A stretch of 64,000 bases of DNA, from positions 2,550 through 66,549 of the forward strand of contig PBME01000008.1 of assembly GCA_002721975.1 (NCBI GenBank). The letters run 5' to 3'. A program made the translations under genes and the position numbers. The notes beneath the pieces were generated by a model. The model was not told the origin of the DNA. It did no database searches and saw only the letters and a list, made by a program, of their open reading frames with translations. Shown here in pieces: positions 41,491 to 44,764 of this stretch. Every line of letters begins with the position of its first letter. Within the stretch, counting starts at the first letter, position 1. The stretch comes from Campylobacterota bacterium (GTDB lineage Bacteria; Babelota; Babeliae; Babelales; Chromulinivoraceae).

Positions 41491-41585
41491 GAACTTGAGC
41501 AGAAAGTTTCTATCATTTTAATAAAGAATTTTAAATTATTTGAATATAAAAACAGTACATGTAACAAAGTATTTTGGTGTGCCCG
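41491..41585. repeat. Direct repeat copy A: degenerate hydrolase 3' end + spacer + last 11 nt of tRNA-Arg
   Basis: 41519-41585 aligns with 44697-44764. I count 4 substitutions and 1 indel over 67/68 nt. It ends with tggtgtgcccg, the reverse complement of CGGGCACACCA (the tRNA 3' end), then diverges. Weaker similarity extends back to 41491 (gaacttgagcagaa vs gaacttaagcaaaa). Confidence 0.85.
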
Positions 41586-41962
41586 AATAACAGCATTCGG
41601 AACTGGCAAGGCTGAAATAGAAGTGAACTTAGATGTTATGTAGAAGTTTCTAGCTGAGGGTCATTTAGATCGTTAAGGATAGATGACTTTTGGTAAATGC
41701 GGTATACTTTAATTCACGCGGTTATTATATGTAAACAAGCCAAAGGAAGCACTGTGCGATATCTCTATCGCGGGACTACTTTAGGGGTGTTTTTCTTTTT
41801 CTTTTCCATATATATTCATATGATGATGGGCATCAACCCGTTTTTGTTGCTTGTGTAGGTCCATATGAGCAACAACATCAATGTGAAGAACAACAAAATA
41901 AATCAGGATTTACTTATAGCTCTAAAATTACACCAACAAGTTTTGAAAGCTCTTGTCGTCCA

Positions 41963-43912
41963 ATGACACCTACAGAAGAAAAAATGTATCTGCAACAACA
42001 AGCAGCAAAGCTCTATGCATTCCAAAAGCATTATGGAGTTGGTGTAAAACAATTTGAGGAGCTTATGAGCAATGAGTGGAGTATGATTGTGCGCAAGCTC
42101 ATGCAAACAGCTCTTGATGATGAGAAGATATGGAATTTATGGAAAGCATATAAAAAGAAGCGTATATGGGACTTTGGTTGGAAAGATGATATTGAATATG
42201 CTTTAAAACAAGCTTTAAAAAAGCGTCAGAAACAAAAAGAAAATCAACAAAGATTAAAACATGAGCAAGAGCAAAAAAAGCAAAAATATTATCAACAAGT
42301 TTATCATGCAAATATCATAGAATTTTCAGATGAGCAGTCGCCATACTTTCATGAGCGTCAGTTAGCATTGCAACAAACACAGCAAGAGGGATATCAACAA
42401 CATGAAAAGAGTTACGATGTAGGGTCTGATGTTCAAGCTTTGGGAGCTAAGCCAGAACAATTCAAAAAATTATCAGGAACATTATTTCAGCATCAGTTGT
42501 TTAAAGAAATAGCGCAATGTTATAAAAAGACTGCAAAAATTGTGTTTGAACATCAGATTAGAAATAGCATATTTGTACCATCTATTCTTGAGTTTGCGCA
42601 AAGTTCATTTCAAGCAGTAGGTTGCGAGCAACTTGCTTTGGCAATGCAATTGAATGATCTATGTGACACATTAGCAGAAACGTCACTTTCGTTTTGTAAG
42701 GGGGCTATAGGTAGCATGTGTAATTTTGTTGATACATATGTTTTGCATTTAGATCGTACCGTTGCTTCTATAGGTAAGATAATGATGTCTGTTGGAGAAG
42801 CTATGATTGCGGCTGATCCTACTGAATTTGGTACTTCATATTATACAGAAGTTTTTGAACGAGAACATTGCAATGATGCTCGTTATGTACAAGATGCTAT
42901 GAATCAATGTAAGATGTGGTATCAGAATAGTTCATTTCAGGAAAAGGTTCAAACTGGTACAGAATTTGTAACAGATCTTGCTGTGCTTCCAATATTGCTA
43001 CATAAAATAAGTAGCGGGTGTTGGGGTCTTATCTCAAGGGCTAGAGATTTACGTGCTTTGGAAAATTCTGCAGCCTTAGTAGAAGAGTTTGGAGGAGTTG
43101 TAGAGGAAATAGTTCAGGCATCACAACCAGAAAAAAAAATTGTAACAACTATAGGTGAGTTAGAAGAATTTATGGTTAGTTTTACAGAGGCTGAATCAAC
43201 TAATGTTGTAAAACAAGCGGCTAATGTTTCTTCAAAATCTAGTATATCTTTTGATCAGGTTGTAAAAAGACTTGTACAAGAAGGAGCTCCTTTTGAAAAT
43301 TCACAGTTTCAAAAAGAAATTTTAATACATTTTAATGAGCAATTTTGTAAAAAAAAATTAGTTAATTGGTGTGACAAGTTTCAAAATTTATATAAAGATT
43401 TTCAAATCATATTTAATAATAACAATAAAAAATTAACTTGCGATTTAGAGCATATTTTAACATGTAATTTGAAATTTAAGTTAAACAAATCGACAGGTCT
43501 GATAGAAGGAAGAGTTGTAGGAGGCCATTATGGAGGTATTTTTGAATCTTTGAAAACTAATAATGTTATTCAATTAATAGAAGAGTGTACTTTACCATGT
43601 GGAGGAAAAGGATTAGCTTACAAGCATAAATTTGGTAATATTCCTGAATATAAATCGATATTTTCATCTTCTTTAAGCCAAGAAGAAATTATGCAAAAAA
43701 TTTTAGAAGTTGTTGAAAAAAAAGAATGTTTATATTTTGATACATGGTTTAATGGAAGTAAGCAAAAAATACATAAAATAGGACAAACTTCAGATGGAGC
43801 TATTATAGAAGTTTTCTTATTGGAGGTGGGCAAGGAAGGATTGTTTTTAGAAAGTGCATTTCCATATTATGAAAAATATTCGAAGGTAAAAGATTTAACA
43901 TGGAAAAAATAG
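41963..43912 (+). CDS. Polymorphic-toxin-like protein with an EndoU-like C-terminal domain, apparently 5'-truncated
   Basis: 649 aa from the first ATG. The same frame is open without any ATG from 41735, 76 codons upstream, and there is no SD. The C-terminal ~155 aa carry EHIL, VGGH, EYKSIFSSSLSQEEIMQKILEVV, GAIIEVFL..., ESAFPY. This resembles the recalled bacterial EndoU toxin pattern HIL.G...GGH...K..FP..WS...I...I...V...G.I.TAFP. Confidence 0.6.
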   Translation: MTPTEEKMYLQQQAAKLYAFQKHYGVGVKQFEELMSNEWSMIVRKLMQTALDDEKIWNLWKAYKKKRIWDFGWKDDIEYALKQALKKRQKQKENQQRLKHEQEQKKQKYYQQVYHANIIEFSDEQSPYFHERQLALQQTQQEGYQQHEKSYDVGSDVQALGAKPEQFKKLSGTLFQHQLFKEIAQCYKKTAKIVFEHQIRNSIFVPSILEFAQSSFQAVGCEQLALAMQLNDLCDTLAETSLSFCKGAIGSMCNFVDTYVLHLDRTVASIGKIMMSVGEAMIAADPTEFGTSYYTEVFEREHCNDARYVQDAMNQCKMWYQNSSFQEKVQTGTEFVTDLAVLPILLHKISSGCWGLISRARDLRALENSAALVEEFGGVVEEIVQASQPEKKIVTTIGELEEFMVSFTEAESTNVVKQAANVSSKSSISFDQVVKRLVQEGAPFENSQFQKEILIHFNEQFCKKKLVNWCDKFQNLYKDFQIIFNNNNKKLTCDLEHILTCNLKFKLNKSTGLIEGRVVGGHYGGIFESLKTNNVIQLIEECTLPCGGKGLAYKHKFGNIPEYKSIFSSSLSQEEIMQKILEVVEKKECLYFDTWFNGSKQKIHKIGQTSDGAIIEVFLLEVGKEGLFLESAFPYYEKYSKVKDLTWKK

Positions 43913-44307
43913 TATACGAATTGCGTGATAATAATAGTTATTGGTCTGTTGCTCAATTTATGCCATATCCTAAATCTCAAATGCATTTATTGCAAATGTC
44001 ATTTAATAAATTGCATGATTGGATAGATGTAGATTTTCAGGGAGATCAGGTAATTATTTGGGATTCATTTGATGAAAATCATGATTCTTGGGAAAATATA
44101 TCAAAATTATATTTATTTAAAGAGAATTATGATCAGGTCATAAAAGAGTGGAATGAAAATGCTAAAAATCCTGCAAAGTATTTAGTTTTTGCTCGAGATG
44201 ATAAAGGATGGGTGAAGTTAGAACCTAAGAGTAAGTTATCAGAAGATGACTTACAAGCAATTGAAGAAGATAAAAGGGCAAAAGTAGAATATGAAAACAG
44301 AAGTTAA
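43900..44307 (+). CDS. Candidate cognate immunity protein (small, acidic)
   Basis: 135 aa. Its ATG overlaps the last 13 nt of the toxin-like ORF. Rich in D/E/W. No signal peptide. No family recognised. Confidence 0.5.
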   Translation: MEKIVYELRDNNSYWSVAQFMPYPKSQMHLLQMSFNKLHDWIDVDFQGDQVIIWDSFDENHDSWENISKLYLFKENYDQVIKEWNENAKNPAKYLVFARDDKGWVKLEPKSKLSEDDLQAIEEDKRAKVEYENRS

Positions 44308-44408
44308 TCTTATCATTTGTTGCAATCTGTATCCATAAAGATTGGATTTTATTGTGAGCTATGAAAAGATAATAGCACAAAAAGATAAGGGTGATTTTTT
44401 AATTATAA

Positions 44409-44699
44409 TATTTTAAAGCACAAGCATATAGGCAAGATTTATATAAACGATCATATCATTTAGCAGGAGTTGCATGGAATCATATTAAAGCACAAGAAGG
44501 TTTGGGTGATTTATCAAAAAAATTAAAAACCATTTCTGTGTCAGCATTTTTTATACATGGTGAAGCAGATGTCCTTATTCCGGCGCAGGCTGGAATTGCA
44601 ACTGCAAGAACTGTACGACATGCAAAACTTGAGATTATACCTGGAATGGGACATATGATATTTAATAATGAACTTAAGCAAAACTTGCTGCTATATTAA
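44409..44699 (+). pseudogene. 3' fragment of an alpha/beta-hydrolase gene
   Basis: Frame open from 44409 with no plausible start. It encodes only the C-terminal part (...VSAFFIHGEADVLIP...LEIIPGMGHMIFNNE...) holding the Asp and His regions of the catalytic triad. No nucleophile-elbow region lies upstream. Confidence 0.65.
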
Positions 44700-44764
44700 T
44701 AAAAAATTTTAAATTATTTAAATATAAAAAATAGTAAATGTAACAAAGTATTTTGGTGTGCCCG
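44670..44764. repeat. Direct repeat copy B, overlapping the hydrolase-fragment stop and the tRNA-Arg 3' end
   Basis: See copy A. 44754-44764 is the 3' end (including CCA) of the intact tRNA-Arg. Confidence 0.85.

Follow-up and report, generated by a model that had tools for sequence, protein, structure and literature searches.

The 64-kb window analysed here is a stretch of 64,000 nucleotides from contig PBME01000008.1 of an uncultured marine bacterium. Between a B3/4-domain gene and an intact tRNA-Arg(ACG) gene it holds a segment of accessory DNA of about 3.2 kb, which is bracketed by two imperfect copies of a direct repeat and carries a predicted polymorphic toxin gene, a putative immunity gene, the remnant of a second immunity gene and the 3' end of an alpha/beta-hydrolase gene (Table 1). 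A sequence-only reading of the window had described the segment as either a decayed islet or an acquisition by homology-assisted recombination from a related locus. The homologous loci and proteins compared with the window are labeled L010 to L027 and P0004.

A direct repeat made of the tRNA-Arg flank, and the genes it encloses

The two copies of the repeat were aligned locally and found to be identical at 83 of 96 columns (86.5%) with one 1-nt indel in each copy, and blastn returned the same match (86.46% over 96). The core pair (41519-41585 and 44697-44764, 3178 nt from start to start) differs by exactly four substitutions and one indel, so that the computed alignment reproduced the count made by hand in the sequence-only reading. 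The weaker match of about 28 nt that had been noticed to the left of the core is genuine; together with the hydrolase stop codon it makes up the leftmost 35 columns, which are the more diverged. Identity climbs toward the tRNA end of the repeat, from 27/35 in these leftmost columns through 29/34 in the middle to 27/27 on the right, and the rightmost 27 nt of both copies (ATGTAACAAAGTATTTTGGTGTGCCCG) are fully identical. The alignment score was 123, while the maximum among 383 control comparisons, in which the left segment was set against 400-nt pieces from elsewhere in the window, was 38. The edges of the repeat are abrupt on both sides. As had been proposed, copy B overlaps the end of the intact tRNA-Arg gene by 11 nt, and copy A diverges completely past 41585. 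The 11-mer in question, TGGTGTGCCCG, occurs at two sites only in the 64 kb, even with one mismatch allowed (expectation 0.17).

On the tRNA strand, the 11-nt fragment reads CGGGCAC-A-CCA and comprises 3' acceptor strand, discriminator base and CCA; the end of copy A coincides exactly with the boundary between the T stem and the acceptor stem of tRNA-Arg. The displaced fragment has the same orientation as the intact gene and lies downstream of it on the minus strand, 3.18 kb away. Past the tRNA the similarity runs on for 84 nt through the spacer into hydrolase codons, with 56 of 69 columns identical (~80-85%). The left 30 nt of copy B are the final hydrolase codons and the stop (…ELKQNLLLY followed by stop) and continue leftward into 270 nt of hydrolase coding sequence, while copy A keeps only about 30 nt, which in translation (ELEQKVSIIL..) are a diverged remnant of the last ~10 hydrolase codons. 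Because 84 of the 95 nt lie outside the tRNA and include the last codons of the hydrolase, the repeat is a duplicated chromosomal flank, consisting of hydrolase 3' end, spacer (~54 nt) and tRNA-Arg 3' end, and not a minimal or element-specific attachment (att) core. The sequence-only reading had seen in it the footprint of integration or recombination at a tRNA gene; an intact tRNA-Arg with a directly oriented 3' fragment downstream agrees with that description.

We also considered whether the repeat might be a dispersed element resembling a miniature inverted-repeat transposable element, but there were two copies only and no significant match elsewhere in the window or in the relative loci. 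A regulatory role was likewise rejected, as a promoter and terminator scan gave nothing over shuffled expectation. Rfam (E <= 1) reported only the three real tRNAs in 41000-47000 and no degenerate tRNA past the 11 nt of copy A. Further displaced tRNA-Arg ends, as from tandem islands, were found neither in the window nor flanking the cassettes of L010 or L011.

The hydrolase fragment that adjoins copy B retains the Asp and His motifs and is missing the nucleophile region. It had been listed earlier among the enclosed accessory or decayed genes, but it belongs to the duplicated tRNA-Arg flank and not to the cargo. At its left end (44428/44429, joint J2) it meets the stump of the orphan immunity gene abruptly, and since two unrelated genes, each of them cut, meet at this point, we regard J2 as an illegitimate junction. 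A search of a 5.8-billion-protein set for the full-length parent of the fragment returned the fragment itself and no close homologue. The other hydrolase of the window was rejected as its source, being only 29% identical. Short imperfect direct repeats (44369-44402 and 44410-44447 versus 44482-44519, 71-76% identical and sharing TTAAAGCACAAG) straddle 44428/44429 and could be either microhomology for the illegitimate joint or a product of chance.

Table 1. Coordinates of the segment, its repeats and its immediate flanks, numbered along the window.
Feature	Position	Strand	Description	Basis
B3/4-domain gene	40717..41421	+	left chromosomal flank	Pfam B3_4, E = 4e-30
Repeat copy A	41491..41585	+	hydrolase remnant and stop 41491-41521, spacer A 41522-41574, tRNA-Arg 3' fragment 41575-41585	alignment, 11-mer search, translation
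Unique region upstream of toxin gene (promoter and ribosome-binding site)	41586..41744	+	joint J1 with tRNA fragment at 41585/41586	
Predicted polymorphic toxin gene	41745..43912	+	GTG start 41745; frameshift in 41786-41810; long open reading frame 41963-43912 (649 codons)	
Putative cognate immunity gene (135 aa)	43900..44307	+	overlaps toxin stop by 13 nt	no Pfam family
Second, orphan immunity gene, 5' remnant (~25 codons)	44354..44428	+	L010 homology ends at 44428	
Alpha/beta-hydrolase 3' fragment (last ~88 codons)	44429..44699	+		Hydrolase_4 positions 181-237 of 239, E = 2e-5
Repeat copy B	44670..44764	+	last 10 hydrolase codons including stop 44670-44699, spacer B 44700-44753, tRNA-Arg end 44754-44764	
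tRNA-Arg(ACG), intact	44754..44830	-		ARAGORN; Rfam tRNA 68 bits; 100% identical to L010 tRNA-Arg
tRNA-Ser(GCT)	44877..44965	-	conserved right flank, common to relative L011	

The toxin gene begins with a signal-peptide-like N-terminus (VRYLYRGTTLGVFFFFF…), to which the L010 and L011 proteins have homologous N-termini, and its ribosome-binding site region resembles the L010 counterpart; the region 41586-41744 gave no match in any relative or in the rest of the window. Its homologues are 681-783 aa long. The sole lesion is one frameshift within a T-rich tract (GTGTTTTTCTTTTTCTTTTCC) in the signal-peptide region, and it is identical across 8 independent assemblies. Because the start and the signal-peptide region are present upstream, the gene is full-length but frameshifted and not 5'-truncated, and the truncated toxin-like frame described previously is only the long frame that follows the T-run. 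The frameshift could mark a fixed pseudogene or a slippage-prone, phase-variable site. In one sample, two scaffolds break at 41774 and 41783, just ahead of the T-rich tract.

The C-terminal ~175 aa of the toxin align with homologues that lie over the Pfam threshold for EndoU_bacteria. PF14436 was the top match of the window domain itself, at 15.3 bits (E = 0.027), which is under the gathering threshold of 25.3 bits, while the alignable L016 toxin and P0004 scored 53.2 and 27.3 bits; membership of PF14436 is thus formal for the homologues and not for the window protein. In an alignment of 8 sequences the residues H24, G47, H49 and K91 are invariant (motif H..GxH..K), and H, G and H remain so once L016 joins the alignment. 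The conserved His, His and Lys are presumably the EndoU catalytic residues. An AlphaFold (AF2) model of the domain reached a pLDDT of 85.3 and a pTM of 0.80, and its best fold match in the Protein Data Bank (PDB) was XendoU (2c1w_C), with a probability of 1.00, but an E value of 0.011 and a TM score of 0.47; Nsp15 came 18th among the fold matches, with a probability of 0.87. A hidden Markov model search of the PDB sequences with the domain found nothing. Together, the sequence and the model allow the C-terminus to be assigned reasonably, not firmly, as a divergent EndoU-like RNase domain.

The first ~470 aa of the toxin have no Pfam family, secretion genes were adjacent in none of the loci, and the N-terminus was judged by eye to resemble a signal peptide. 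Nine toxin homologues align over their whole length. Set beside the L011 toxin, the window toxin has 29-52% identity over its N-terminal and middle parts but 86% in the toxin domain; the comparison with the L024 toxin shows the reverse pattern (52% N-terminal, 32% C-terminal). Because identity to L011 is high in the domain and low in the N-terminal and central parts, the toxin-domain/immunity module must be exchanged by recombination. A conserved N-terminal and central region with an exchangeable C-terminal toxin domain is a feature of polymorphic toxins. The named genomes carrying the family, sought in GTDB with an alignment of 7 sequences, are only a Candidatus Babeliales metagenome-assembled genome (MAG) and one groundwater MAG.

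The 135-aa protein encoded directly after the toxin has 95% (L010) and 87% (L011) amino acid identity to proteins encoded after toxins with the same domain type, where the toxin domains are 92% and 86% identical; where the domain differs, identity is only 35-43%. This co-variation is the mark of a cognate immunity gene and, together with the overlap with the toxin stop, bears out the candidate immunity gene of the sequence-only reading, with a putative neutralising role. The following stump can be assigned through L010, which holds a complete version of the same frame (181 aa): because the L010 version matches, at 63% identity, the immunity protein cognate to another toxin subtype (L025), we identify the remnant as belonging to an orphan immunity gene. 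Orphans downstream of the toxin, whether C-terminal tips or immunity genes, are represented by this stump in the window and by full genes, arrays and a fused remnant in L010, L014, L016 and L024. An orphan copy in L014 is also related to the window immunity protein, at 61% amino acid identity. In that locus (5432-7124) the toxin is followed by four small open reading frames (135, 140, 135 and 146 aa) that form an orphan immunity array; the third is the one nearest to the window protein, and the first, which adjoins the toxin, reaches only 43%.

Cassette sites in relatives and the chromosomal neighborhood

At the DNA level the window cassette is 86.7% identical to L010 and 85.5% identical to L011, and in relatives the toxin/immunity cassette is found at other loci and has no vertically fixed place at the window site, in keeping with the accessory nature that had been ascribed to the enclosed genes. 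The order in L010 is rhodanese, tRNA-Cys, tRNA-Leu(TAA), toxin, immunity, orphan immunity and tRNA-Arg(ACG) 3' end, the cassette reaching an identical tRNA-Arg(ACG) 3' end without spacer or hydrolase. It meets the tRNA exactly at the 3' terminal base, because the orphan immunity frame (4438-5064) has no stop before tRNA-Arg(ACG) and reads antisense into the tRNA. That frame marks another junction at a tRNA-Arg end, in a different lineage. L024 shares the left flank of L010 (tRNA-Cys/tRNA-Leu(TAA)) and also has a fused toxin remnant and another immunity-like gene. At L024 5040-5643 a second toxin promoter, with the first ~45 toxin codons, is joined to a short C-terminal tip, after which comes the immunity-like frame. 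This orphan toxin with an internal deletion shows that recombination takes place within these loci.

Three relatives (L011-L013) are syntenic with the window on both sides, and their cassette lies 126 nt after tRNA-Leu(CAA), where no flanking tRNA-fragment repeat was seen at the L011 cassette; the tRNA-Arg(ACG) flank of these relatives has a DUF1653 gene and, in L011, neither cassette nor hydrolase. The window has at the corresponding position a 75-nt spacer (46614-46688) between tRNA-Leu(CAA) (46526-46612) and a HIT gene (46698-47036), which is the unoccupied counterpart of the cassette site of these three relatives (L011 9876-12529). The tRNA-Leu(CAA) site is a second tRNA-flanking hot spot in the same neighborhood. 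The cassettes of L014, L016/17, L023 and L025-27 do not directly adjoin tRNA genes, and of about ten distinct cassette locations three are directly beside tRNA genes. In L016 (6932-10548, also L017) a decayed B3/4 gene is immediately preceded by an EndoU toxin, an immunity gene and an orphan toxin tip with an immunity duplicate. This B3/4 gene has 53% amino acid identity to that of the window over the 171 residues aligned; ~12 codons are missing at its N-terminus, and there is a frameshift near residue 183. The context there (NUDIX/CYTH/ClpB) is unlike that of the window. This second, independent adjacency of the toxin family and a B3/4 gene may reflect chance or a real link.

A marine population is represented by contigs from ~13 independent samples or assemblies that are at least 99.95% identical to the window, and four of them span the whole segment. 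Exact look-ups of the B3/4 and immunity proteins in public assemblies found every contig of the population occupied, and no empty site. The spacer pattern had no match in 185,579 GTDB genomes and two in JGI metagenomes, both from the same strain and in the occupied arrangement. The nearest other B3/4 homologues are 70% (L015) and otherwise at most 60% identical, too distant for an orthologous empty site. In L015 a convergent tRNA-Arg(TCG) follows the B3/4 gene after 51 nt, with an unrelated spacer (locus 1645-1772); this tRNA is 76% identical to the window tRNA-Arg and has two mismatches to the 11-nt fragment. The search for an empty site that had been advised earlier yielded the tRNA-Arg flank of L011 and the B3/4 flank of L015, both free of the cassette and suggestive, not orthologous, but no true empty site.

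Gene order at the B3/4 flank is the same in all contigs of the population, and the nearby genes have housekeeping functions (GroEL, FtsH, BamA, CysRS, RadA, MurA). ARAGORN found four tRNA genes in the 64-kb window, among them tRNA-Arg(ACG) and tRNA-Ser(GCT), which Rfam confirmed. The window DNA is ~32% GC, with housekeeping genes of the diderm type and an ankyrin-repeat frame at 3038-3631 on the minus strand. The MAG carries the NCBI label 'Epsilonproteobacteria bacterium', which may be mistaken: the named genomes with the toxin family are only the Babeliales and groundwater MAGs, and the organism could be a member of Dependentiae.

Possible origins of the segment

The lack of an integrase or transposase noted in the sequence-only reading holds in the segment and across the 64 kb. 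Pfam found no Phage_integrase, recombinase or transposase among the open reading frames of the segment, a precomputed Pfam table listed no recombinase family among the called genes within 10 kb on either side, and 30 further frames of at least 150 aa across the 64 kb were also free of recombinases, as was every relative locus beside its homologous cassette. The segment DNA had no match in phage and plasmid collections, and the toxin family had no relative in IMG/VR. Composition was examined for hints that the DNA is foreign and proved uninformative: GC is 0.324 in the segment versus 0.314 and 0.333 in the flanks, GC at third codon positions is 0.21 versus 0.18-0.31, and the tetranucleotide distance ranks 11th of 122 windows, so that the comparison of GC and codon usage proposed earlier did not distinguish the segment.

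In the account that we hold to be probable, though only modestly so, the segment is a small polymorphic-toxin islet, non-autonomous and in decay, that settled in the variable region immediately following tRNA-Arg(ACG) when tRNA and flank homology allowed it to recombine in from a related tRNA-Arg locus. DNA of a related bacterium would have brought in the cassette already joined to a truncated hydrolase, spacer and tRNA-Arg flank, and host recombination would have fixed it through the shared flank and tRNA homology. This may have happened by a single, Campbell-type crossover with a circular fragment. It may equally be pictured as homology-facilitated illegitimate recombination (HFIR), with one end anchored by homology in tRNA-Arg and the other joined illegitimately at 41585/41586 inside the recipient tRNA; in Vibrio cholerae, effector/immunity genes have been proposed to be displaced by HFIR (PMC5361080). 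Copy A would then be the old flank of the recipient with its displaced 11-nt tRNA end, and copy B the incoming flank, attached to the functional tRNA. The toxin gene has since been frameshifted, and the segment now contains nothing that could mobilise it. The route and the assignment of the two copies to donor and recipient are what we infer; the abrupt joints (41585/6 and 44428/9) and the homology at the anchor are seen directly, and neither a donor nor a recipient locus was recovered.

Donor and recipient are consistent with related species, because the copies differ by ~14%, which is near the divergence of the cassette from L010 and L011. Of the two options offered by the sequence-only reading, a decayed islet or homology-assisted recombination, the second fits best, given the 84 nt of repeat outside the tRNA and the ~14% divergence. 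Several points weigh against this account. The tRNA fragment begins exactly at the T/acceptor junction, where a random illegitimate joint would rarely land, and the copies match perfectly over the 27 nt at the tRNA end, as an att core would. The searches turned up neither a locus of the donor type (with cassette, hydrolase fragment, spacer and tRNA-Arg in this order) nor an empty site of the recipient type, and the integrase scan covers 64 kb of the genome, so that an integrase may lie elsewhere. The composition of the segment carries no sign of foreign origin either, although because the donor would be closely related no such signal is expected.

Alternatively, an island with the cassette entered tRNA-Arg(ACG) site-specifically, through a tyrosine integrase active at the boundary of T stem and acceptor stem; the integrase gene would since have been lost or, through imprecise excision, left behind, or the enzyme would act in trans. 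This is unlikely but, because of where the fragment starts and of the identical 27 nt, stays a serious rival. In this scenario the segment would be the remnant of something like a cis-mobilizable element (CIME), and the extra flank would stem from an earlier imprecise excision, in the style of specialised transduction, that took spacer and hydrolase 3' end along from a previous host. It would explain why the intact tDNA and the directly oriented 3' fragment lie 3.18 kb apart with the fragment on the correct side, why the start of the fragment falls on a recognised crossover subsite (PMC4383910), and why the block across the tRNA end is identical. It would also suit the precise abutment of the L010 cassette on the tRNA-Arg 3' terminus and the three of about ten cassette sites that lie beside tRNA genes even though such genes are sparse (4 per 64 kb). 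Set against this are the failure to find an integrase in the segment, in its 64-kb context or beside the cassettes of relatives, and the reach of the repeat 84 nt into non-tRNA chromosome at ~80-85% identity, since attP does not normally share the flank of attB. The tRNA-Leu cassettes of relatives, moreover, have no flanking tRNA-fragment repeats, and integration, imprecise excision, re-integration and integrase loss add up to more steps.

Less likely than an integrase, and in our view improbable, is an intragenomic rearrangement, in which the hydrolase-spacer-tRNA-Arg region was segmentally duplicated, or two tRNA-Arg genes, one of them originally next to B3/4, recombined unequally; deletions would have followed, and the cassette would be a long-standing resident. 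A composition equal to that of the flanks and an arrangement fixed in the population are in line with such a history. Because in L015 the B3/4 gene is followed by a convergent tRNA-Arg after 51 nt, a tRNA-Arg beside B3/4 may be ancestral, but the L015 tRNA is another isoacceptor (TCG) with the low identity, the mismatches and the unrelated spacer described above. Copies from a recent duplication should be nearly identical, whereas these differ by 14%, mostly at a distance from the tRNA. The syntenic L011 has neither cassette nor hydrolase at its tRNA-Arg, and both the cassette and the toxin-domain/immunity module clearly move between lineages.

That the repeat is a chance match or an assembly artefact has next to no probability: this AT-rich region does contain many short two-copy repeats, but the alignment score far exceeds the null maximum, the G+C-rich 11-mer is unique to the two sites, and four contigs span both copies within a sequence recovered from ~13 independent samples or assemblies.

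Returning to acquisition through flank homology, a broader form of it can be put forward as a speculation with a slim chance of being right. Integrase-less cassettes of this kind might spread recurrently among uncultured marine bacteria, probably resembling Babeliales or Dependentiae, with tRNA genes and their flanks as portable homology anchors; bolder versions would have an unrecognised recombinase acting in trans at the T/acceptor junction, or the recurrent placement beside B3/4 genes, with their tRNA-binding fold, reflecting a functional tie to the tRNase toxin. If such a recurrent unit exists, each hop should leave behind a displaced tRNA end or a truncated neighbor.

Comparison with known systems

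The segment belongs with decayed toxin/immunity islets at tRNA hot spots, which are nothing out of the ordinary, and it leaves our understanding of tRNA-associated islands or of polymorphic toxins unchanged. Its value is that of a small, clean example of toxin/immunity cassettes that appear to be shuffled into tRNA-flanking hot spots without a recombinase encoded by the element, in a lineage of uncultured marine bacteria for which gene flow and inter-bacterial conflict are almost undocumented. The comparison of loci also defines a previously unannotated family of predicted polymorphic toxins, with a domain-less N-terminal region of ~470 aa, EndoU-type or other C-termini and immunity genes, and this definition should help the annotation of such MAGs.

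Genomic islands in tRNA genes have been catalogued as Islander islands, with crossover subsites at the anticodon loop, the T loop and the T/acceptor junction (Hudson, Lau & Williams 2015; PMC4383910). The segment resembles them in its intact tRNA with a displaced 3' fragment downstream in direct orientation, in the more than 2 kb of accessory DNA so bracketed, and in a fragment that starts at the T-stem/acceptor subsite. It differs in having no integrase gene, which is an explicit Islander filter, in a repeat that continues 84 nt past the tRNA at ~80-85% identity, and in a cargo consisting of a single decayed toxin/immunity cassette. Because an integrase is lacking and the repeat is not confined to the tDNA, we did not classify the segment as an Islander-type island.

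Elements known as CIMEs, which derive in streptococci from integrative and conjugative or integrative and mobilizable elements, are att-flanked DNA without recombination genes of their own, the cognate integrase being provided by a related element in the same species. Like them, the segment is accessory DNA between att-like direct repeats and has no recombination genes. Unlike them, it has no known cognate integrase, and its repeats are diverged copies of a flank and not identical att sites.

In the type VI secretion system arrays of V. cholerae, the displacement of effector/immunity genes has been attributed to HFIR (Kirchberger et al. 2017, PMC5361080, which cites de Vries & Wackernagel 2002 for the process). 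The likeness to the segment consists of a module anchored on one side with an illegitimate joint on the other, of gene stumps and orphan immunity genes, and of a related donor. In the segment, however, tRNA-Arg and the sequence beside it would serve as the anchor in place of an effector gene's conserved 5' part or a secretion-system gene, the flank has ended up duplicated and a tRNA end displaced, and HFIR itself is inferred.

Polymorphic toxin systems with EndoU-type C-terminal nuclease domains have been described by Zhang et al. 2012 (PMC3482391), who also report the exchange of toxin-domain/immunity modules by recombination in other systems of this class (PMC3482391). Judged on its genes and their homologues, the segment appears to have the defining features of a polymorphic toxin/immunity locus, a recognisable secretion module excepted. 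Sec-dependent polymorphic toxins are represented by MafB of Neisseria, which is encoded in maf genomic islands. With known polymorphic toxins the window protein shares a signal-peptide-like N-terminus, a conserved N-terminal and central part, an exchangeable C-terminal domain and a small immunity gene next to it, and relatives have orphan C-terminal tips and immunity genes downstream. It stands apart from them in that its N-terminal and central region of ~470 aa belongs to no Pfam family, no known secretion-system gene is adjacent, and the toxin domain is sub-threshold for PF14436.

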